From: Candidatus Aminicenantes bacterium
GTDB lineage: Bacteria > Acidobacteriota > Aminicenantia > Aminicenantales > Saccharicenantaceae
Direction of reading: 5' to 3'
Assembly (NCBI GenBank): GCA_963809345.1
Contig: CAWEJF010000013.1
Coordinates: 57,155 to 121,154 of the forward strand
Length of the DNA: 64,000 nucleotides
Shown: positions 4,668-52,368 of the stretch, in pieces
How the letters are laid out: every line of letters begins with the position of its first letter
Position numbering within the stretch: the stretch's first letter is position 1
Position numbers and translations under genes: made by a program
Notes under the pieces: model-generated
Told to the model about the DNA's origin: nothing
The model's database searches: none
Seen by the model: only the letters and a program-made list of their open reading frames with translations

Positions 4668-4752
4668 TCGATCATTCGGGGGCATGCACTCTCCGTGCGT
4701 GTCCCCATTTTTTTGCCTCGGCGGGCAACGCAATAACCCAGGGCGGCGTCGA

Positions 4753-4847
4753 GGCCGCCCATAGGCCCCCGTGATGGAAGGGGGACCCACCGCAGGTGGG
4801 GGAAACCGGATTCGCAGGTTTCCGGGGTGCGGGGGCAAGGGGCGGCC
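4753..4847 (+). repeat. Structured GC-rich repeat element, copy A (core 4765-4836; flanked by a 38-bp perfect inverted repeat 4723-4760 / 4840-4881)
   Basis: Shares the core GCCCCCGTGA..GGGGGACCCNCCGNAGGNGGGGGAAACC(N8-9)GGTTTCCGGGG.GCGGGGGC with copies at 14962-15054, 30602-30700 and 45811-45905 (reverse complement). Paired positions covary between copies. Confidence 0.8.
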
Positions 4848-4962: not shown

Positions 4963-5037
4963 GCGGGCGTAGTTCAGTGGTAGAACGTCTGCTTGCCATG
5001 CAGAAGGTCGTGGGTTCAAGTCCCATCGCCCGCTCCA
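4963..5037 (+). tRNA. tRNA-Gly (anticodon GCC)
   Basis: Cloverleaf by eye: acceptor GCGGGCG/CGCCCGC, anticodon loop TTGCCAT, T-loop GGTTCAAGTCC, 3' discriminator T then CCA encoded. Confidence 0.85.
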
Positions 5038-5065
5038 ACGATCCGCCCGTAATCATGACGACCCT

Positions 5066-5141
5066 GGCGCGGTACCCAAGTGGCCAAGGGAGAGGTCTGC
5101 AAAACCTTTATTCGTCGGTTCGAGTCCGACCCGCGCCTCCA
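5066..5141 (+). tRNA. tRNA-Cys (anticodon GCA)
   Basis: Acceptor GGCGCGG/CCGCGCC, anticodon loop CTGCAAA, T-loop GGTTCGAGTCC, CCA encoded. Confidence 0.8.
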
Positions 5142-14895: not shown

Positions 14896-14961
14896 TTTCG
14901 GGCCGATTCCGGTGCTTCTCCCGTCATCATCGGGGAAGTCCGTCGTGAGGCGGCGAGGGAT

Positions 14962-15054
14962 GTCGCTCAAAAGCCCCCGTGAGGGAAGGGGGGCCCGCCG
15001 GAGGCGGGGGAAACCAGCTACAAGGTTTCCGGGGTGCGGGGGCAAGGAGCGATA
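14962..15054 (+). repeat. Structured GC-rich repeat element, copy B (3' of ppdK)
   Basis: Same core as copy A. Termini GGGATGTCGC ... GCGATATCC are shared with copy D. Confidence 0.8.
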
Positions 15055-15141
15055 TCCTGAGCAAAGCCTCTGAGGGAACTTCCTCGATTCCCAGAGAAGC
15101 ACCTTTTTTCCGGTTCGGTTTTTTGATATGGTGAGGTTCGC

Positions 15142-16137
15142 ATGGGCGATCTGCTCAACCTCGTCAAGGTCCTCGTCGGGAAGCGCTTCCCGTTCCAGCT
15201 CATCTTCAGCAACGAATACTGGATGGTCGAGACCGGCAAGCACGTCTTCCCCCTCCAGAAGTACCGGCTCGTCTACGAGAACCTCCTGGCCATGGGCGCG
15301 AAAAAGGAGAATTTCCTCAGGCCCCGGCCGGCCCCGGACGAGGATGTGCTCCTCGTCCACACCTCGCGCTATCTCAAGCGCGTCAAGACGGGCGGCCTGA
15401 GCCCGGCGGAGCTCAAGGCCCTCGAGGTCCGCTATTCGCCCGAGCTCGTCCGCTTCGCCCTTCTTTCGGTCGGCGGGACGGTCCTCACGGCCCGCAAAGC
15501 CATAGAATCGGGCCTGGCCGTGCACCTCGGCGGGGGCTGGCACCATGCCTTCCCCGACCACGGCGAGGGCTTCTGCCTCCTCAACGACGTGGCCGTGGCC
15601 GCGCGCAAGGTCATCGTCGACAAGCTCGCCGAGCGGGTCATGATCGTCGATTGCGATCTCCACCAGGGCAACGGCACGGCCGCCGCGCTCGCCGGCCGGC
15701 CGGAGATCTTCACCTTCTCCATCCACCAGATGGACATCTACCCCACGGAAAAACCCTTGAGTACCCGCGACGTCGGCCTCTGGGCTGGGGACGGCGACGC
15801 CAAGTACCTGACCGAGCTGCGCGCCCACATCCCCAAGATCTACCGGGAGTTCCGGCCGAACCTCGTCATCTACCTGGCAGGCGCCGACCCCTACGAAAAA
15901 GATCAATTGGGGGGCCTGGCCTTGACCAAGGCCGGATTGAAGGAGCGGGACAAGGTCGTCATCGAGAACGCCCGCGGATTGGGGATCCCCGTCGCTGTCG
16001 TCCTGGCCGGTGGCTACGCGCTGGAGATCAAGGACACCGTCGATATCCACCTCAACACGGTCCGCATCGCCCAGCGCGTGCAGAGGATCTACCCCGAGCC
16101 GCCGCCGGGCCCCCCCGTCGTGCGGCGCCCCGTCTGA
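15142..16137 (+). CDS. Histone deacetylase-family amidohydrolase (AcuC/HDAC-like)
   Basis: HDAC class motifs GGGWHHA...GFCLLNDVA...DCDLHQGNG. Confidence 0.8.
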   Translation: MGDLLNLVKVLVGKRFPFQLIFSNEYWMVETGKHVFPLQKYRLVYENLLAMGAKKENFLRPRPAPDEDVLLVHTSRYLKRVKTGGLSPAELKALEVRYSPELVRFALLSVGGTVLTARKAIESGLAVHLGGGWHHAFPDHGEGFCLLNDVAVAARKVIVDKLAERVMIVDCDLHQGNGTAAALAGRPEIFTFSIHQMDIYPTEKPLSTRDVGLWAGDGDAKYLTELRAHIPKIYREFRPNLVIYLAGADPYEKDQLGGLALTKAGLKERDKVVIENARGLGIPVAVVLAGGYALEIKDTVDIHLNTVRIAQRVQRIYPEPPPGPPVVRRPV

Positions 16138-34429: not shown

Positions 34430-36684
34430 ATGAGCGCGCGCAGCGATCGGGTCAGGATCGTCGAGCAGGCCGAGAAATTCGTCAGGGCTGGCCGGGTCAA
34501 GGAGGCCATCGCCGAATACGAGAGGCTCTCGCTCGGCGACCCCCAGGACGTCGGGACCCTCAACATCATCGGCGACCTCTACATCCGCCTCGGCCAGAAC
34601 GACAAAGCCATCCGCTCCTTCCAGCGGGTCGCCGAGGAATACGAGCGGCGGGGGCTCTTCTCGCAGGCCCTGGCCATCTGCAAGAAGATCCACAAGCTCA
34701 CCCCCGAGAGCACCGACCACGCCCTCAAGCTCGGCGACCTCTACGCCCAGCAAGGCTTCGCCGCCGAAGCCAAGACCGTCTACGCATCGGTCGCCAGCCG
34801 GCTGGCCGGGGCGGGTCAGGCCGTCGAGGCCATCGCCATCTTCGAGAAGATCGTCAAGATCGATCGCGAGGACCACGACGCCCGGAAGGCGCTGGCCCGG
34901 CTGTATCGGGAATCCGGGAACGTCGATGCGGCCGTGACGCAGCTCGACGAGAGCGCCGACGTCCGCATCGAGAAGGGTGAGCTCGACGAGGCCGCCGCCG
35001 TCCTCCACGAGGCCCTGGCCCTGCGGCCGGGCGATCCCCGCAGCATCGTCGCCCTGGTCGACGTCTATAAGCGGCAGGAGCGGACGGACAAGGCCGTCGC
35101 GCTTCTCGAAAAAGAGCTGGCCGCGGCGCCCGACAACGTCCAGCTCCTCAACATCCTCGGCAACATCCATTTCGAGGCGGGCGAGACCACGACGGCCGAG
35201 GAGATCTTCACCCGCATCGTCACCGGCCACCCCCTCAACGTCAACGCCCGCATCAAGCTCGGGCGGATCCAGATCCTCAAGGACAAGCTCGACCAGGCCT
35301 ACGAGCTGTTCGAGCCGTTGATCAACAACCTCGTCAAGAAACATCGCGACGAAAAGGCCATCGGCCTCCTGGGGCTCATCCTGGAGAGCCAAAAGCCCCA
35401 TCTGCCCGCGCTCGAGCGTCTGGCCCTGATTTACCGGTCGAACAAAGAGGTCAAGAAGCTCGAGGTCGTGGACCGGGCCATCCTCGACGAGCTGCGCCGG
35501 ATCGGCGAGAAAGAGCGGATGGTCGGCGTCACCTCGGAGCTCCTCGAGCTCCGTCCCGATGACGCCGATCTCGCCCGGGAGATGCGGGCCCTCCGGCAGG
35601 AGCTGGGTCTGCCGGTCGATGAGGTCCAGGAGGAATCCCCGGACCTTTCGGAGAAGGACCGAGAAGCGATCCGCGAGGTCATGAGCCAGGCCGATCTCTA
35701 CCTCCAGCAGGGGCTCGTGCGGATCGCCCGCCGGCTCCTCGAGAACCTCCGCTTCCGCTACCCCGAGGACCCCCAGATCGTGCGCAAGATCGCCGTCCTC
35801 GACGAGGTCCGGACCCACATCGACGAGGACGAGATCCGCCGGCGCGTCGAGAAGACGACCATCCTCGAGGCCCAGCTCAAGGAAAAGGCCGCCGGCAAGA
35901 GGGCCGAAGGCAAAAAGGCCGAGGAAAAGAAGACCGACGACGCGAAGGGCGAAGTGGGAAAGGCCGAGGCCCGGAAGTCCGAAGAAAGCGTCCCCGAGGC
36001 CCCGAGAACGGAGGACAAGAAGGTCGAGGCAAAACGGAAGCCGGCCGGTCCCTTCAAAGCCGAGGTCCTCGAAGGGGAGAAGATCAGCACGGCCGATCTG
36101 TTCGCCGAGACCGACATCATCCCCTTCGTCAACGCCGAAACGGGAGAGAGGACGTACGACGACCTCCGGGAGGCGGCCGCGGCCGAGCTGCGCTGGATCG
36201 CAGCGGCCCGGGCCCGCATGCTCCAGGGGAACGCTTCGCCGCTCGAGCGGTCGCTCACGGCGATCGTCTCCGATTTCCGCAAGGACTTGGGCAAGACCGC
36301 CATCGCCGAGGACCCCGATACCCATTATGAGCTCGGCCTGGCGTTCATGGGCCAGGGCCTCATCCCGGAGGCGGTCGAGGAGCTGAGGGAGGCGGCCAAG
36401 GACAAGAGGCTGGCCATCGACAGCTACTAGCCTCATCAGCCAGTGCTATCGGCAGAAGCGGGATTTCGACGCGGCCGCGAAGTGGATGAAGACGGCCATG
36501 GCCGAGGCCAAGCCTGGACACCGATCAGTACTACGCCCTCGTCTACGAGCTCGCCGAGATCATGGAAGACTCCGACGATCGCGAGAGGGCCGCCGCGTTC
36601 TTCCGGGAGATCCGCGATTGGAACCCGGGCTTCCGGAACGTCGCCGCCCGCCTCGACGCCCTCGAAAAAACAGCCGTGCGCTGA
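34430..36684 (+). pseudogene. Large TPR-repeat protein. Intact to 36430, but the evident C-terminal continuation (to the TGA at 36682-36684) is split by two +1 frameshifts.
   Basis: Main frame ends ...KDKRLAIDSY* at 36430. The +1 frame continues LISQCYRQKRDFDAAAKWMKTAMAEAKPG. The next +1 frame continues DTDQYYALVYELAEIMEDSDDRERAAAFFREIRDWNPGFRNVAARLDALEKTAVR*. Both read as genuine TPR sequence. Confidence 0.6.
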
Positions 36685-36780
36685 TCCAGATCCAGCGGGA
36701 AAAACTGCCCGGGAAAAGAAGAAGAGGGACGGCTCCCGGGTCAGACTCAGAGCCGGGGACATCCCTCTGGGTGTCTTGAT

Positions 36781-37525
36781 TCAGTCGACGATCTTGGCGG
36801 AGATGATGAGGATGAGGCCCTTGTCGCCGCCGTCGAGCTTGGAGACGCCGACGACCGTCCGTCGCCGGACTTGATGTTGAGAACGTGTTCGATGAGCGTG
36901 GCACATTGATGATGGGCTTTTCGCCCGACACAACCGGTCTGCACGATCCTGCTCCAGCCGGATCTCTGTCTTGATGACCGCCGCTTTTACAGTCCCCAGC
37001 GACGTCCGGCTGGAGGGCTAACTCGAATTCGGCCTTCGGACCGAACTTGACTTCGCGTTCTCCCTGTTGACGGTCCGTACGAGCGTGGCGTCGAGGAACG
37101 TGTAGCCCTTGAAGCGTAGGAGCTTGCGCAGCTCCCGGATAATGGGATCGTTCTGGAGCTCGGGTCGGTCGTGGCGTCGGCTTCCGAACCCAGGACGAGC
37201 TGGACCGTGTAGAGGACGTCGGCCGGCTTGACGTCGAGCTCGCGGATGGCGGCCAGGATCTTCTCGACGTTCTCAGGCGTATCGCTGACCGTAAGGACCG
37301 CTGGCATGTTTGGGTTGAACTGTATGATGCGTCCGTCGCGGCTGACATAGGTGTAGAGCAGATTATCAATGTCCTGGGCCCGGACGTATTTGAGCTTGAC
37401 GATCTCCTTCCGTAGGTTCTTCGTCTCGGCTTTCTGTTCCTGCGTGGCAGGATCAACGGGGTCTTCGGCCAAGGCGGGCATGACGACAGCCAGGGTGAAA
37501 GCCAACGCTAAGAGCGCGATCATTC
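36781..37525 (-). pseudogene. Secretin-N/STN-like periplasmic protein gene, disrupted by at least 3 frameshifts
   Basis: Starts with a signal peptide, MKKGMIALLALAFTLAVVMPALA. Frame 0: KLKYVRAQDIDNLL...FNPNMPAVLTVSDTPENVEKILAAIRELDV (secretin-N-like). Shifted frames then continue as ELQNDPIIRELRKLLRFKGYTFLDATLVRTVNRENAK, then VKFGPKAEFE..., and finally ...VVGVSKLDGGDKGLILIISAKIVD*. The start overlaps the anti-sigma stop (ATGA). Confidence 0.5.
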
Positions 37526-38051
37526 CTTTCTTCATTCTTGTTCTCCTTTGTAATCGAAATTCTTGTCGAGGAACCAGACGACTTGGAGCCCGGTTTCCGG
37601 CGAAACCATGGTGATGGCGACCCTGTCCTGGCGGGGATTCTCCGACGCGATGACCATGCCGCCTTCGCCCGTCTCGCTTTCCGGTCCCGGCGACGGCCCC
37701 CTGAAGGATCACCGAGAGGATGGCCAGCCCGATCACGGCGCCGAGGACCGAGGCCGCGGCCCAGCTCGGCGTGCGGACGGGCCTGCCGGCGTCGGCAGAC
37801 GCCCTCCGGGCTCCCCGCGCCTCCGCGGCCACCCGGACCATCAGGGCGTTCCATTCGCCCTCGCCCCATCCCGGGACGCCTTCCGCTTTTGCCGCGGACT
37901 TGACCTCGGCCAGGGCCGCCCGGAACCCTTCGAGTTCCGCCCGGCAGCCCGGGCAGGCGTCGACATGGGCGCGAACGGCGCGAGCGAGACGCGGCTTCAG
38001 ATCGTCGCCCGCCAAGAGCGGCATGAGCTTGCGGACCTTTCGGCACGTCAT
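37522..38051 (-). pseudogene. Zinc-finger anti-sigma factor (HxxxCxxC, single TM), frameshifted near 37690
   Basis: N-terminus MTCRKVRKLMPLLAGDDLKPRLARAVRAHVDACPGCRAELEGF, then a TM helix AASVLGAVIGLAILSVIL. After the TM the reading frame becomes Arg/His-rich. A -1 shift restores ...GEGGMVIASENPRQDRVAITMVSPETGLQVVWFLDKNFDYKGEQE*. Confidence 0.55.
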
Positions 38052-38631
38052 CGTCCTTCCTCCAGATGGGGGCAGTCCCGCCGGATGGCCTCGCGGAGCT
38101 TGCGCCGGGCCGAGGACAGGTTGACCCGGACCGAGATCGCCGAGCAGCCCAGCACCCGGGACGTCTCCCGGATGTCGAGCTCCTCGAGATCCCGGAGCAC
38201 GAAAACCTCCCGCTCCCTCCGGCTGAGGGCGGCCAGCGAACTCATGATGCCGGCCCGGAGCTCCCGCCGGTCGTGCCCGGCCTCCGGATCGGCGGCCGCC
38301 AACCGGTTGTCGCTGCGGGCGCCCGCCCGACCACCTCGCTGAAGGCCGCCTGCTCCCGCGACCTTTTCCTGGTGCGGTCCCGGGCCTCGTTGGCCGCGAT
38401 CTGGAAAAGCCAGTTCCGGAACGAGCGGGAGACGTCGAAGCGGCCGAGCGAGCGGAAAGCGCGGAGCAGGGCTTCTTGAACGACCTCGAGGGCCTCTTCC
38501 CGGTTGCGGGTCAGCCGGGTCGCGAAGGCGAGGAGCCGGTCCCTGTGAGGGGTGATCAGCGGCTCGAATGCCTCGGTGCGGCCGGAGAGAACCATGTCGA
38601 TGAGCTCCTTCTCCGTCTCGTTCATCCGCAT
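38048..38631 (-). pseudogene. ECF (sigma-70 family group IV) sigma factor, frameshifted near 38320
   Basis: Region 2 lies in frame 38242..38631 (EEALEVVQEALLRAFRSLGRFDVSRSFRNWLFQIAANEARD). Region 4 lies in a different frame, 38048..38250 (LSRREREVFVLRDLEELDIRETSRVLGCSAISVRVNLSSARRKLREAI). The stop overlaps the anti-sigma start. Confidence 0.6.
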
Positions 38632-38773: not shown

Positions 38774-40012
38774 TCAGGCGCCGACGTGGACGAGGTCCTT
38801 GACCTTCTTGAAGACCTCGAGCACCCGGTCGACCTGCGCGTCCGTATGCGTCGCCATGTAGCTCGTCCGCAGGCACGAGAACTCCGGCGTGACGGAGGGC
38901 GGCAGGGCGACGTTGGTGTAGATGCCTTCCGCGAAGAAGATCTTCCAGGCCTCGATGGCCTTCATCATGTCGCCGATCACGATGGGGATGATGGGTGTTT
39001 CGCTCTCGCCGATGTTGTAGCCCATGGCCCGGAGCTCGCCTCTGACCCGAGCCGCGATCGTGTTGACCCGCGCGACGCGTTCCGGTTCCGCTTCGAGGAT
39101 GTCGAGGCAGGCCAGGACCGTGGCCACGTTCGAAGGCGGCAGGCTGGCGCTGAACATGAACGGCCGGGCGAACATCTGGATGAAGTGGACGGCCTCCTTG
39201 GGGCCGGCGATGAAGCCGCCGACCGAGGCGAGGGACTTGCTGAACGTGCCCATGACCAGGTCGACGTCCTTCTGGAGACCGAAGTGCCAGCCCGTACCCC
39301 GGCCGCCGCCGAGGACGCCGATGGCGTGGGCGTCATCCGACATGAACCGGGCGCCGTACTTTCGGCAAAGGGGGATGATCTCGGGCAGCTTGGCGATGTC
39401 GCCGCCCATGCTGAAGACGCCGTCGACGATGACGAGCTTGGCCGGCTCGGACGGCAGGGACTTCAGGACGGCCTCGAGATCGGCCATGTCGTTGTGCTTG
39501 TAGTAGCGGGTTTGGACGTTCTTGACGGCCTTGGCCATGCGAACGCCGTCGATGATGCTGGCGTGGACTTCTCTATCGGTGATGATGATGTCGTCTTTGT
39601 CCATGATGGCCGGGATCGTGCCCAGGTTGACCTGGAAGCCGGTGCTGAAGACGAGGGCCGCCTCCATGCCGACGTACTTGGCCAGCCGCGCCTCGAGCTC
39701 GATGTGGAGGTCGAGGGTGCCGTTGAGGAAGCGCGAGCCGGTGCAGCTCGTGCCGTACTTCCTGACGGCCTCGATGGCCGCTTCCTTGACCTTGGGGTGG
39801 TTGGTCAGCCCGACATAGTTGTTCGAGCCGATCATGATGAACTTCTGGCCGTGGATGTAGACCTCGGTGCCCTCGGCGTGCTCGATGGGGATGAAGTAGG
39901 GGAAGAGGCCCATGGCCTGGGCGGTCCGGGGGTTGAGGGGATAACCGTATTTCTGGGCGACCACGGGGTCGGAGTAGAAGCCGATACATTTCTCGAAAAG
40001 GTCCATTTTCAC
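38774..40012 (-). CDS. PLP-dependent alpha-oxoamine synthase family acyltransferase (Kbl/BioF/serine palmitoyltransferase-like)
   Basis: Fold-type I PLP enzyme with GTFSKS (Lys) and HAS...DG motifs characteristic of the AONS/KBL/SPT family. Confidence 0.8.
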   Translation of the reverse strand: MKMDLFEKCIGFYSDPVVAQKYGYPLNPRTAQAMGLFPYFIPIEHAEGTEVYIHGQKFIMIGSNNYVGLTNHPKVKEAAIEAVRKYGTSCTGSRFLNGTLDLHIELEARLAKYVGMEAALVFSTGFQVNLGTIPAIMDKDDIIITDREVHASIIDGVRMAKAVKNVQTRYYKHNDMADLEAVLKSLPSEPAKLVIVDGVFSMGGDIAKLPEIIPLCRKYGARFMSDDAHAIGVLGGGRGTGWHFGLQKDVDLVMGTFSKSLASVGGFIAGPKEAVHFIQMFARPFMFSASLPPSNVATVLACLDILEAEPERVARVNTIAARVRGELRAMGYNIGESETPIIPIVIGDMMKAIEAWKIFFAEGIYTNVALPPSVTPEFSCLRTSYMATHTDAQVDRVLEVFKKVKDLVHVGA

Positions 40013-45810: not shown

Positions 45811-45905
45811 ATCGCCCCTGGCCCCCGCGCCCCGGAAACCTGCGAATCCGGTTTCCCCCGCCTCCGGCGGGTCCCCCTTCCATCACGGGGTCTTTGGGGC
45901 GACAT
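45811..45905 (-). repeat. Structured GC-rich repeat element, copy D (reverse orientation)
   Basis: Its reverse complement is nearly identical to copies A and B, including termini GGGATGTCGC...GCGATATCC. Confidence 0.8.
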
Positions 45906-45971
45906 CCCTTGCCGCCTCACGATGGCCTTTCCCGGAAACGGGAGTTTAGCCGGAAATAGGCGAGGCGGGCC

Positions 45972-49178: not shown

Positions 49179-52100
49179 CTATTCAGATGTTTTTGGACCG
49201 AGAGGCAGTTCGCGGACGGCATCCGAGCCGACCTTGATGCGCGCGGCGACATCCTTCTCGCCCCGGATCTTCTCATCGGTCAGGTAGTGGACCTCGAGCA
49301 GCCCGTCGGCGTGGAAGCCCGTCCGGAAGTAGTTCATCTCGGCGAGCGATTGACTCCAACCCAGGAGCCAGGTCTCGAGCTCCTTGCGTTGCCGGCCGCC
49401 GCCCAGGAAATGGACGATGATTCGGATGGGGCTGGCCGGCTCGACTTCGCCGCCGTCGCTCGTATCGACGAGGTAGACGCCCCGGACGCCCCACTTCGGG
49501 TCGCCGCAGTGGAAGGCGATCCGTTCGGCCATGCGCAGACGCCAGCGGGCGTGATCGCCGTCGTCGACGGCGCCCGCCCCTTCGGCGGCGCAAGCGGCCC
49601 GCACCGCGGCGTCGGGGGCGGTGAAAAAGCCGACGGCGAGCTCCCGGTCGGCGTTCATGAGCACACGAAGGACCTTGCCGCCGGTCGCCGCGGGGATGTC
49701 GATGACCCTCAGGGTGTCGCCGAGCGCGGCGCATTCGGGACAGTGCTCGGCCAGCGTGTTGGGGGCCTCGAGCAGGAACTTCTCGTTGAACTTGACCCCC
49801 TCGTCGTCGGGATAGAGAGGCAGGTAGCGGATGCCCGACTCGACGAGGTCCTGGAAGAAATGGGTCCCGAAGGACACATCGGGGACGTAGTTGCCCTTCT
49901 TGCGGGCGACCTCGATGAGCATGGCCGAATTGTTGATCTCCGAATAGGTGACGCGGACGCCGAGCTTGATGTCGCCGCGGCTGCCCCACCGTCCCGGACC
50001 CATGAGGATGAACTGGCGGCGCGGCAGGAGCTTGTTGAGCTTGCCGACGGCCTGCCCCACGGCGACGAGGTCGGCGAATTCGTTCAACTCGCCGTAGCGG
50101 TCAGGGTCGACGTAGACGAGATGGGTGACATCGGCGACCCGGCCGTTCGAGATGTGCTTGCGCGCGGTGAAGAGGACGGACTCGTCCTTGAGATTGGCCG
50201 GGATCTCCATGGCCACGTCCTCGGCGCCTTGGCTCTGTGGCCGGCACTGGAGGAGATAGAAGTCGGTCGCGGTCGCGGCGAACTCGATATCGACGGGGAC
50301 GCCCATCGCCGTCGACAGGGTCTTGAGGATGGCCTCGAGCTGGAGCATGAAGGGGGTCCCGGAGATGAGGCCCTCGAAGGTGACGACGGCATCCGACGTG
50401 GCGATGTCCGTGGCCAGGCCCATGGGCCTCTGGAGCAGGCCGTCCCGGTAGATCGAGAAGACCTTGGTCAGGGCGGGGAACTCGTGGCCGACCTCCTTGA
50501 GGACGTCCAGGATGTCTTTGGTCACGAAGGTGTTCTCCTCGAGGTCGATGACGTCGATCTTCTTGGGCGAATAGCGGACGACCTCGTCGGTCGAGACGTT
50601 GACCCTCAGGTTCGGCTGGCTCGGGGAGACGAGGATGGGATAATCGTCGCTGACCCGGTCGACCGCCCGCGTCCCCAGGCCGGGCACGAGCCGGAGCAGG
50701 CCGTCCTCGCGGCGGATGCGCGGCGACCAGCGGAACTCGTTCCGGCTGAAGGCGACGCCGGCGTAGGCCGGGAAAAAGTATTTCCCGGCGCGCGTGCCGA
50801 CGACCTCCTGGATCATGACCGCCATCTCCTCGTAGAAGTCGAGGAGCCCGCGCTCCGCCCGGTACTGGATCGGGTCGGGGCTGAAGATCGAGGCGTAGAC
50901 TTCGGCCACCGCGTCGAGCAGGGCCTCGAGGCGCTTCTGCTTGTCGCCCTGATTGGCCAGGAAGAGGCTCTTGTACTTCCCGGCAAAGGCCGTGCCCAGC
51001 CGGTCCTCGAGGAGGCTCGAGCTGCGGACGACGAGAGGGACCTCGCCGAAGTCGTCCAGGGCCACCGACAGGCCCTTGACGATCTCGGGGGGGAAGGTCG
51101 AGTTCTTGAAAACCTGGACGAGGTGGGGGTATTCCTGGCGGACAATGTCGATGTCCTTGTATTTCTGCTCGTGGATGTCGTCGAGGTTGTTGTAGGTCGT
51201 GAAGGAGATCAGGGCGTCCGAGGTCACGTACCAGGTCTTGGGCCTCTTGACCGCGCCGATGATCTTTGTCCGGCGGGCCGCCTGGGTGAGGATCCGGTGA
51301 CCCAGAAACAGGCCGGCGCTCTTGCCGCCGAGCTTGCCGTGGCTGCCCGGCGGGAAGATGATGCGCTCCATGAGGTCGAAGAAGTCCTCGATGTCGACGT
51401 ACTTCTTGGCGACGTTGATGAACTCGAGCTGCTCGGTGAAGAAGCGGCGGATGAGGGCGACGCGGACGCTGTTGGCCAGGGACCGCGGCAGCTGGATGCC
51501 CTCGGGCGCCAGGATCTTGATCCGGCGCATGCTGTCGAGGACCTCGGCCAGGTCGGCATAGACGTTCTCCAGGTTCTTGACCGACGCGCTGGAGCGGTCC
51601 TCGTTGATCCACTTGTGGATGCGGTCGAGGACCTCCTCGTCGGTCAGGTTGGCCGAGGCGACGCGGAAGGTCTCCTCGGTCAGATCGAAGAAACGGTCCA
51701 TGGATTCCCGGGTCTGGGGAAGGTTGGACTCGCCGAACAGGCCCTCGTTCATCCCGTCGCCGCTGAAGCGCTGAAGGAGGTCGCGGGCCTCGGTGACGCC
51801 GCGCCAGCCGAGGTAGTTCATCATCTTGCGGGAGACCCGGATGAGGAGGCTCGGGTTGGTGTTGCGGAGGAGGTCCAGCGCGATCCGCCAGCCCTGCTTT
51901 CCCGCCGGCCGCCTCGCGGCGCTGGTCGCTGATCTGCTCGTACATGCTCCGCAGGCGCTGATGGAGGATGAAATGGCCGAGGCGCTCGGCGATCGATTGG
52001 ATGAGCTTGATCTCGCCCTTCATGAACGGACCGCAATCGCTCTCCGGCGTCGGCTTCCTGTACGATACGCAGAGACGGCCGACTGAGGCGTCCTGAACTC

Positions 52101-52368
52101 GGATCTCGGCGCAGTGGATGTACGGCGTCTCTTCGAATTCGGGGGATTCGAAGACGTCCGCGCCGTAGGTGATCTGGGCCTGGCAGCAATCGGGGTGCTG
52201 CCAGCCCGGCGGGATGGCCTCGATGACCTGGCGGAAGACCTCCTCCAGAGGGACGTCGTAGATGCTGAGGATCTCCTCGACGCGGTAGAGGCAGCTCAGC
52301 TCCTTGGCCCGCTCGTTGAGGGTGGAGAACAGGGTGCTGACGGCCGTCGGGGTGCGCTGGTTGGACAT
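49179..52368 (-). CDS. Large PEP-utilising-enzyme / pyruvate-phosphate-dikinase-like protein with an extra Cys-containing N-terminal domain; apparent single frameshift near 51895
   Basis: N-terminal 150 aa (MSNQRTPTAVSTLFSTLNERAKELSCLYRVEEIL...) in frame 50101..52368. The remainder (PPDK_N-like PEP/pyruvate-binding region) lies in frame 49179..51824. The junction is at GGCGGGAAAGCAGGGCTGG. Confidence 0.6.

Follow-up and report, generated by a model that had tools for sequence, protein, structure and literature searches.

Has a regulatory module of this Candidatus Aminicenantes genome been lost to frameshifts, or are its genes broken only in the deposited sequence? The question is raised by four adjacent genes on a 64-kb stretch of a metagenome-assembled genome (MAG) contig (hereafter the window): a TPR-repeat protein gene and, convergent to it, the genes of an extracytoplasmic function (ECF) sigma factor, a zf-HC2 anti-sigma factor and a small exported secretin-N-like protein. 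As judged by comparison with related sequences, the frameshift cluster in these genes is very probably a local accumulation of indel errors in the consensus, beneath which the genes are intact, and not a pseudogenised module. We favour an artefact because nine edits of one nucleotide (nt) each restore the genes, because there is no excess of substitutions, and because frameshifts among the relatives track Nanopore-only MAGs. In the organism itself, the four genes are most likely intact, comprising one for a TPR protein of 751 amino acids (aa) and a convergent ECF sigma/zf-HC2 anti-sigma/secretin-N-like operon with ATGA overlaps.

Nine single-base edits restore four adjacent genes

The window has a GC content of 65%, and its real genes show a strong signal in the GC content of third codon positions (GC3). 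We read gene frames by listing open reading frames (ORFs), by three-frame translation and by Pfam scans. In addition, a codon-usage model trained on the long genes of the window was used to find coding signal extending upstream of every start codon or breaking off far ahead of a stop codon. Indels were placed by frameshift-aware alignment of ortholog proteins (10 orthologs for the secretin-N-like gene) and by a MAFFT DNA alignment for each gene with 9–12 intact orthologs. The features of the affected stretch are the following:

34430..36684, + strand: TPR-repeat protein gene (Pfam TPR families); 751 aa repaired, 666 aa as deposited
36428, + strand: 1-nt insertion of T in the TPR gene, AGCTAC[T]AGC; the base is missing from all 12 orthologs (MAFFT)
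36518, + strand: 1-nt insertion of A in the TPR gene, CCTGG[A]CACC (MAFFT with 12 orthologs)
36685..36780, no strand: intergenic junction at which the TPR and secretin-N-like genes converge; many relatives have a ~3 kb insert here
36781..37535, − strand: gene of the small exported secretin-N-like protein; ~251 aa repaired; five firm and two probable 1-nt indels
37532..38051, − strand: zf-HC2 (HxxxCxxC) anti-sigma gene; 172 aa repaired; one 1-nt insertion at ~37709 (frameshift-aware and DNA alignments)
38048..38631, − strand: ECF (group 4) sigma-70 factor gene; 194 aa repaired; one 1-nt deletion at ~38305

Nine single-base indels could be placed firmly between 36428 and ~38305, each of them a base that is present or absent in the window only, relative to the 9–12 intact orthologs. 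Five are insertions (36428, 36518, 36948, 36991 and ~37709) and four are deletions (~36862, ~37055, ~37164 and ~38305). All are exactly 1 nt long, and most lie outside homopolymers or without an adjoining identical base. Editing only these nine bases yielded stop-free ORFs of 751, 251, 172 and 194 aa, the length of their orthologs, with which the repaired frames align end to end.

The consequences of the individual events are plain in the deposited reading frames. The inserted T at 36428 creates an in-frame TAG (36428–36430), downstream of which good TPR sequence continues in two other frames to 36684. In the sigma gene, the deletion shortens GGG to GG in the linker between regions 2 and 4, and the Sigma70_r2 and Sigma70_r4_2 domains, which lie in different frames as deposited, share one frame after repair (62 and 48 bits). 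The zf-HC2 and Secretin_N domains detected by Pfam are, as deposited, fused into one artificial ORF. Within the secretin-N-like gene, all events of the window fall at codons ≥122. Here, the segment 36904–36938 scores poorly in its nominal repaired frame (codon log-odds −11.3, GC3 4/11), whereas an alternative frame scores +5.2 with a GC3 of 8/11 and is ortholog-like. This segment probably contains two further, compensating indels, which would bring the number of events in the stretch to ~11.

The clustering is extreme, with nine of the ten events of the window confined to 1.9 of its 64 kb (upper bound on P = 5e-11) and an indel density between 36.43 and 38.31 kb of ~0.5% of positions (9–11 in ~1.9 kb). 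Outside 36.4–38.4 kb, the codon-model scan flagged a single place in the window, at ~51.9 kb on the − strand:

49179..52368, − strand: PEP/pyruvate-binding gene (Pfam PPDK_N in the repaired product); isolated 1-nt insertion at ~51897, in the minus sense AAA[G]CAG; 1062 aa repaired

As deposited, 168 N-terminal codons of this gene lie in one frame and ~890 codons in another, and the called product has 881 aa. Removal of one base joins the two parts into 1062 aa, which homologues of 1060–1062 aa cover to 100%, continuously across the junction …GGKQGWRIALD…. Apparent phase changes at 31.6–32.2 kb turned out to be intact S16 and KH-protein genes without a frameshift.

Among the direct and inverted repeats of the window, none involves 36.4–38.4 kb, no inverted repeats flank the stretch and its base composition is ordinary. 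A collapsed repeat or an invertible segment is thus not supported as the cause. Two of the ten window events adjoin GATC, a marginal observation.

The initial annotation of the window had placed the breaks in the same four genes, with coordinates that proved accurate to ~20 nt, and the alignments bear out its two shifts in the TPR gene (now placed at 36428 and 36518) and its single shifts in the anti-sigma (now at ~37709) and ECF sigma (now at ~38305) genes. Its count of at least seven captured the cluster and underestimated the number, which is 9–11; likewise, at least three shifts in the secretin-N-like gene holds as a minimum but is an undercount of the five firm and two probable ones. It was also correct in that the out-of-frame continuations read as good protein, as seen in the sigma regions, the TPR tail and the ATGA overlaps, and hence argue against ancient decay. 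It took every other long gene to be intact, which was wrong by one, namely the PPDK_N gene. Similarly, the proposed locality of the errors stands as far as the clustering goes but not as strict confinement, given the further event at ~51.9 kb and a window-wide rate equal to that of the Nanopore-only loci described below. The annotation had also considered a collapsed assembly segment, for which a repeat involving the stretch is missing from the window.

The lesions do not look like gene decay

Bacterial mutation-accumulation studies find base substitutions to be about tenfold more frequent than indels, and indels to be concentrated in runs. A gene that has gathered many indels under relaxed selection would thus be expected to carry substitutions as well. 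Of 754 alignment columns at which all other orthologs agree, 12 (1.6%) carry a substitution private to the window, the lowest share among the orthologs covered in all four alignments (others 2.1–10.1%). The secretin-N-like gene alone has 3 in 246, despite its 5–7 indels. Assuming such a tenfold substitution-to-indel ratio, ~16 extra changes would be expected at the invariant columns of this gene (P(X≤3) = 7e-5) and ~36 in the whole region (P(X≤12) = 4e-6).

Across the alignments of the four genes with 9–12 orthologs, we likewise found no nonsense mutations, no larger deletions and no deletion bias among the lesions. Taken at the level of sequence, the lesions do not look like gene decay, because they consist of indels only, are all 1 nt long, comprise about as many insertions as deletions and come with no excess of substitutions.

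Orthologous genes are intact outside Nanopore-only assemblies

We scanned species-representative genomes with the TPR protein and obtained 33 related loci. Candidatus Aminicenantes-type MAGs account for 32 of these (a few with other organism labels), and the remaining one is a Desulfobacteraceae match of 25% identity. A further 58 metagenome contigs were fetched using the repaired anti-sigma protein as query, giving 91 related loci in total. Twelve of the 33 genome loci (254 kb) belong to Nanopore-only MAGs, here called MFD loci, and the other 21 amount to 352 kb. The MFD MAGs were assembled from Nanopore reads only, using Flye (--meta --nano-hq) and one round of Medaka without short-read polishing (PMC12313526), and Nanopore-associated errors at lower coverage, including consensus indels and frameshifts, are acknowledged for this long-read MAG catalogue (PMC12313526). 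An earlier benchmark by the same group found that bins below ~40-fold coverage still require short-read polishing and that consensus indels lead to frameshifted gene calls (PMC9262707).

The neighbourhood shows conserved synteny (RNase HII and TPR, then the convergent secretin-N-like, anti-sigma and sigma genes, then an aminotransferase), with a best genome relative of 86% aa identity and a best metagenome match of 81%. In ten relatives, all three minus-strand genes are single intact ORFs (sigma ~190, anti-sigma ~172 and secretin-N-like ~250 aa), and every fully covered copy of the four genes in non-MFD MAGs is intact. The same was true for fully covered short-read metagenome contigs, where full-length genes in a single frame were seen for anti-sigma in 49/49, for the secretin-N-like protein in 38–39/39 and for sigma in 37/37 cases. 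In the module genes of these contigs, four weak DP events were found, two of which form one compensating pair.

To scan the 33 loci for frameshifts, we used a homology-based search with queries restricted to codon-model-positive ORFs. Counts of private non-triplet indels from the DNA alignments were dropped as too noisy in variable genes, where non-MFD loci scored too, and frameshift-aware protein-to-DNA alignment was used instead. Frameshifts were present only in the MFD MAGs, with 46 in 254 kb (9/12 loci) versus 0 in 352 kb (21 loci; Fisher p = 6e-6). An apparent frameshift in the non-MFD locus L019 was a scaffold gap of 100 N. The window-wide rate of ~12 events in 64 kb, or 0.18 per kb, is the same as the MFD-locus average.

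Against this background, we consider it improbable that real indels inactivated the ECF sigma/anti-sigma/secretin-N-like module and the TPR tail in this lineage. Such genuine pseudogenisation agrees with the disrupted ORFs of the deposited sequence and the truncated products in public collections, with the fact that four adjacent genes are struck while their neighbours are clean, and with the evolutionary lability of the module (variable content and recombination, see below). However, it would have to accommodate 9–11 indels without a substitution excess or nonsense mutations, and events of only 1 nt that, unlike spontaneous bacterial indels, involve no larger deletions or deletion bias and lie mostly outside homopolymers. 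It also conflicts with the distribution of frameshifts in the secretin-N-like gene, which are restricted to Nanopore-only MAGs and found in none of 50 other assemblies, and with the same kind of lesion in an unrelated gene 14 kb away (PPDK_N). Of the two explanations offered in the initial annotation, an assembly segment with indel errors is thus strongly favoured, and the evidence speaks against a pseudogenised module, since the lesions are indels only, repairable and Nanopore-linked. Comparison with orthologous loci, which had been proposed there as a check, proved informative, with genes that are intact in non-Nanopore assemblies and frameshifted in several Nanopore-only MAGs.

The module is a recurrent error hotspot in Nanopore MAGs

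The window is not the only sequence in which the module is struck. In the MFD loci, excluding the generally poor locus L031, the three module genes carry 1.2 events per kb, while four conserved control genes have 0.08 per kb (p = 2e-8). This value was obtained with the window's own repaired proteins as reference, in which a probably mis-framed segment could induce false paired shifts. We therefore repeated the test with clean references (intact non-MFD orthologs), and the result held, with a module density of ~1.0 per kb. For two of the genes, the clean references gave the following counts:

Secretin-N-like gene: 24 events in 12 MFD loci (6 loci affected); 0 in 13 other MAG loci; 0/37 in metagenome contigs
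Sigma gene: 6 events in 12 MFD loci, mostly in the linker between regions 2 and 4; 0 in 13 other MAG loci; 2 events in 33 metagenome contigs

Counting the window with the MFD loci, the secretin-N-like gene is frameshifted in 7/13 as compared to 0/50 others (p = 3e-6). The module is therefore a recurrent error hotspot within Nanopore MAGs. The hotspot loci (L001, L004, L014, L015, L026 and L031) come from different Aminicenantes species, and their control genes are nearly clean. In the sigma gene, five of the six MFD events and the event of the window fall within a GC-rich linker (codons ~104–121), whereas event positions inside the secretin-N-like gene vary from MAG to MAG. Overall, the MFD events comprise 44 insertions versus 3 deletions, mostly of a single base, and 33 of the 44 insertions are not adjacent to an identical base. 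The contexts of 52 strictly placed single-base events showed no shared motif by eye, no k-mer enrichment test having been run. In three Nanopore MAGs (L027, L003 and L030), the module is error-free.

A recurrent hotspot might suggest a systematic artefact, in which DNA modification or a signal-perturbing context at the locus makes nanopore basecalling insert or drop bases at any coverage. We regard this as just as unlikely as pseudogenisation. Apart from the window, the module is struck in six of the 12 Nanopore MAGs, which are independent and stem from different species, with flanking genes clean in most of them; the sigma events are concentrated in the GC-rich linker; and a modification would be invisible to short-read data. 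On the other hand, the differing positions of the secretin-N-like events among MAGs, the lack of a motif evident by eye and the ordinary composition of the stretch do not fit such a cause, and the error-free module of L027, L003 and L030 is contrary to an effect that is independent of coverage. More specifically, the hotspot may reflect a dense or locus-specific base modification that is physically present in several Aminicenantes species, an idea that the evidence here does not support and that we hold to be marginally less probable still. Finally, programmed recoding or phase variation (ribosomal frameshifting or slippage switching) has in its favour only that the out-of-frame continuations encode good protein, and it can be dismissed as next to impossible since each ortholog protein lies in a single frame, which effectively excludes it, the sites are neither conserved nor slippery heptamers nor simple-sequence tracts, and decoding would have to cope with each of nine separate events across four genes.

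A variable junction may account for the locality of the errors

If the cluster consists of consensus errors, their concentration in ~2 kb calls for an explanation. Many relatives carry ~3 kb of extra sequence between the TPR and secretin-N-like genes, as seen from synteny breaks by blastn in L027, L031, L003, L010, L013 and others. In L027, the insert (L027:12290-14974) encodes a 493-aa multihaem cytochrome c with CxxCH motifs and a 391-aa outer-membrane-like protein. The cytochrome has a weak NCBIfam match, far below cutoff, to ExtKL-type multihaem cytochromes. From this gene content, the ECF module may control an extracytoplasmic electron-transfer component that the window genome lacks.

The module is also the most divergent and mosaic part of a 20-kb neighbourhood, with a best identity of ~85% compared to 90–95% in the flanks and a nearest relative that changes along the module. 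Two contigs from different metagenomes (L065:1269-4091 and L066:1-2835) are 100% identical over 2.4 kb, through the sigma and anti-sigma genes and ~350 nt into the secretin-N-like gene. Their identity then drops to 72–89% in the 3′ half of the latter, and from the end of the gene, which is the junction of the 3 kb insert, they cannot be aligned. This pattern indicates a sharp recombination and structural breakpoint inside the secretin-N-like gene. The error-rich stretch of the window straddles this variable junction.

The secretin-N-like gene varies in other ways as well. In L003 (~14938–15930), it has an in-frame insertion of ~80 aa that is, by eye, Poly_export/Wza-like. The synteny break of L026 is similar to that of L003, so that L026 possibly carries the insertion, too.

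These observations could be accommodated as follows. The sampled natural population would have been mixed at the TPR/secretin-N-like junction, with the 3′ half of the secretin-N-like gene recombining and the ~3 kb insert present in some members and absent from others. The assembler would have taken one path, which few reads matched at the junction, and weak polishing there would have left the consensus near raw-read (roughly single-read) quality, with ~0.5% indels. We propose heterogeneity because the events in the secretin-N-like gene all fall at codons ≥122 and because the error stretch straddles the variable junction. Cross-mapping between co-occurring relatives was considered as another source of the errors and rejected, as the identity between MAGs from the same sample is only 75–93% over the locus and does not peak at the module.

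Several points weigh against consensus errors over intact genes, or against this account of where they arose. The case for an artefact is built on comparative evidence only. Among the scanned genomes and metagenomes there was no independent assembly of the same species, and no intact copy of this exact lineage was seen. The substitution test becomes weak if the substitution-to-indel ratio is only 3 (P = 0.28–0.72). Furthermore, the ratio of insertions to deletions is 6:4 in the window and 44:3 in the MFD loci (p = 0.014). Because of this difference in profile, we do not claim the window as an MFD MAG, and it may come from a different pipeline. As for the locality of the errors, strain heterogeneity is a cause that we infer rather than show, and errors are fewer in the anti-sigma gene than in the secretin-N-like gene, although the former diverges more between species.

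Products of the repaired genes and other features of the window

After repair, the sigma factor matched TIGR02937 with 101.8 bits (cutoff 42.9) and consists of sigma-2 and sigma-4 domains only. Directly downstream of its gene, the anti-sigma gene encodes an N-terminal zf-HC2 domain (PF13490, 34.8 bits versus a cutoff of 22.2) in which the motif H-VDA-C-PG-C is visible. ATGA overlaps were found both between the sigma and anti-sigma genes and between the anti-sigma and secretin-N-like genes. The third protein scored 24.4 bits with Pfam Secretin_N (PF03958), below the cutoff of 28.2, and showed similarity to the GspD N-domain (E = 9e-10) as well as 37.6 bits with TIGR02517, far below the cutoff of 351. 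In the Pfam and NCBIfam searches, the 251-aa protein had no secretin C domain and N-domain scores below the cutoffs, and we therefore refer to it as secretin-N-like and not as a member of the secretin family.

The proteins of the window are stored in a public collection as gene calls on one NCBI/ENA contig of 241,257 bp that has no annotation. Among them are the truncated products of the lesions, namely a 129-aa sigma (38242–38631), the 666-aa TPR protein (34430–36430) and an 881-aa dikinase-like protein (49179–51824), two of which serve as cluster representatives.

Elsewhere in the window, three intergenic sites (4751–4844, + strand; 14931–15034, + strand; 45813–45934, − strand) share a GC-rich element that is ~100 nt long and contains several hairpins, with a mean column identity of 78%. 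One of its stems shows a compensatory change (CCCACC…GGTGGG versus CCCGCC…GGCGGG), and Rfam, searched at gathering thresholds, gave no match to the element. It may belong to the REP-like elements or represent a small RNA or terminator module not described before. Real tRNA-Gly(GCC) and tRNA-Cys(GCA) genes are located at 4963–5141. An ARAGORN prediction of a 'tRNA-???' with a four-base anticodon at 39010–39105 (+ strand), inside the aminotransferase coding sequence, is without Rfam support and almost certainly spurious.

Implications and comparison with known systems

Consensus errors over intact genes would remove a false lead, as the ECF sigma module of this Aminicenantes genome is most likely intact and not decayed. 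The frameshift cluster would then not be real as biology, and modestly useful as a lesson in quality control. Such MAGs would give wrong pseudogene counts and false inferences of "gene loss", and spurious truncated proteins are already in public collections. Errors in long-read-only MAGs can apparently cluster to an extreme degree, so that 2 kb of sequence close to raw reads in quality can go unnoticed behind a quality score for the whole genome. If the link between hotspot and breakpoint holds, spurious frameshift clusters could flag hypervariable loci, which need haplotype-aware polishing.

With bacterial frameshift pseudogenes, the window shares several adjacent ORFs interrupted by small indels. 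It differs from them in the lack of a substitution excess, nonsense codons, larger deletions, a homopolymer bias and support from non-Nanopore assemblies. The likeness to Nanopore consensus indel errors (PMC9262707, PMC12313526) is closer, including single-base indels that fragment gene calls and are confined, among the 91 related loci, to Nanopore-only assemblies, genes that are intact in other assemblies and an overall rate matching that of related Nanopore MAG loci. Such errors are, however, classically bound to homopolymers and spread with coverage, whereas the events of the window lie mostly outside homopolymers, with 9–11 of them in 1.9 kb. A further difference is that the same module is struck recurrently in several independent MAGs. 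The repaired genes, in turn, resemble operons of ECF sigma factors and ZAS-type (zf-HC2) anti-sigma factors, with a sigma factor predicted to consist of sigma-2 and sigma-4 only, an HxxxCxxC anti-sigma factor and ATGA overlaps that would indicate translational coupling. What sets them apart from these operons is the third gene, which encodes a small exported protein resembling a secretin N-domain and to which many relatives add a cytochrome and an outer-membrane-like protein.

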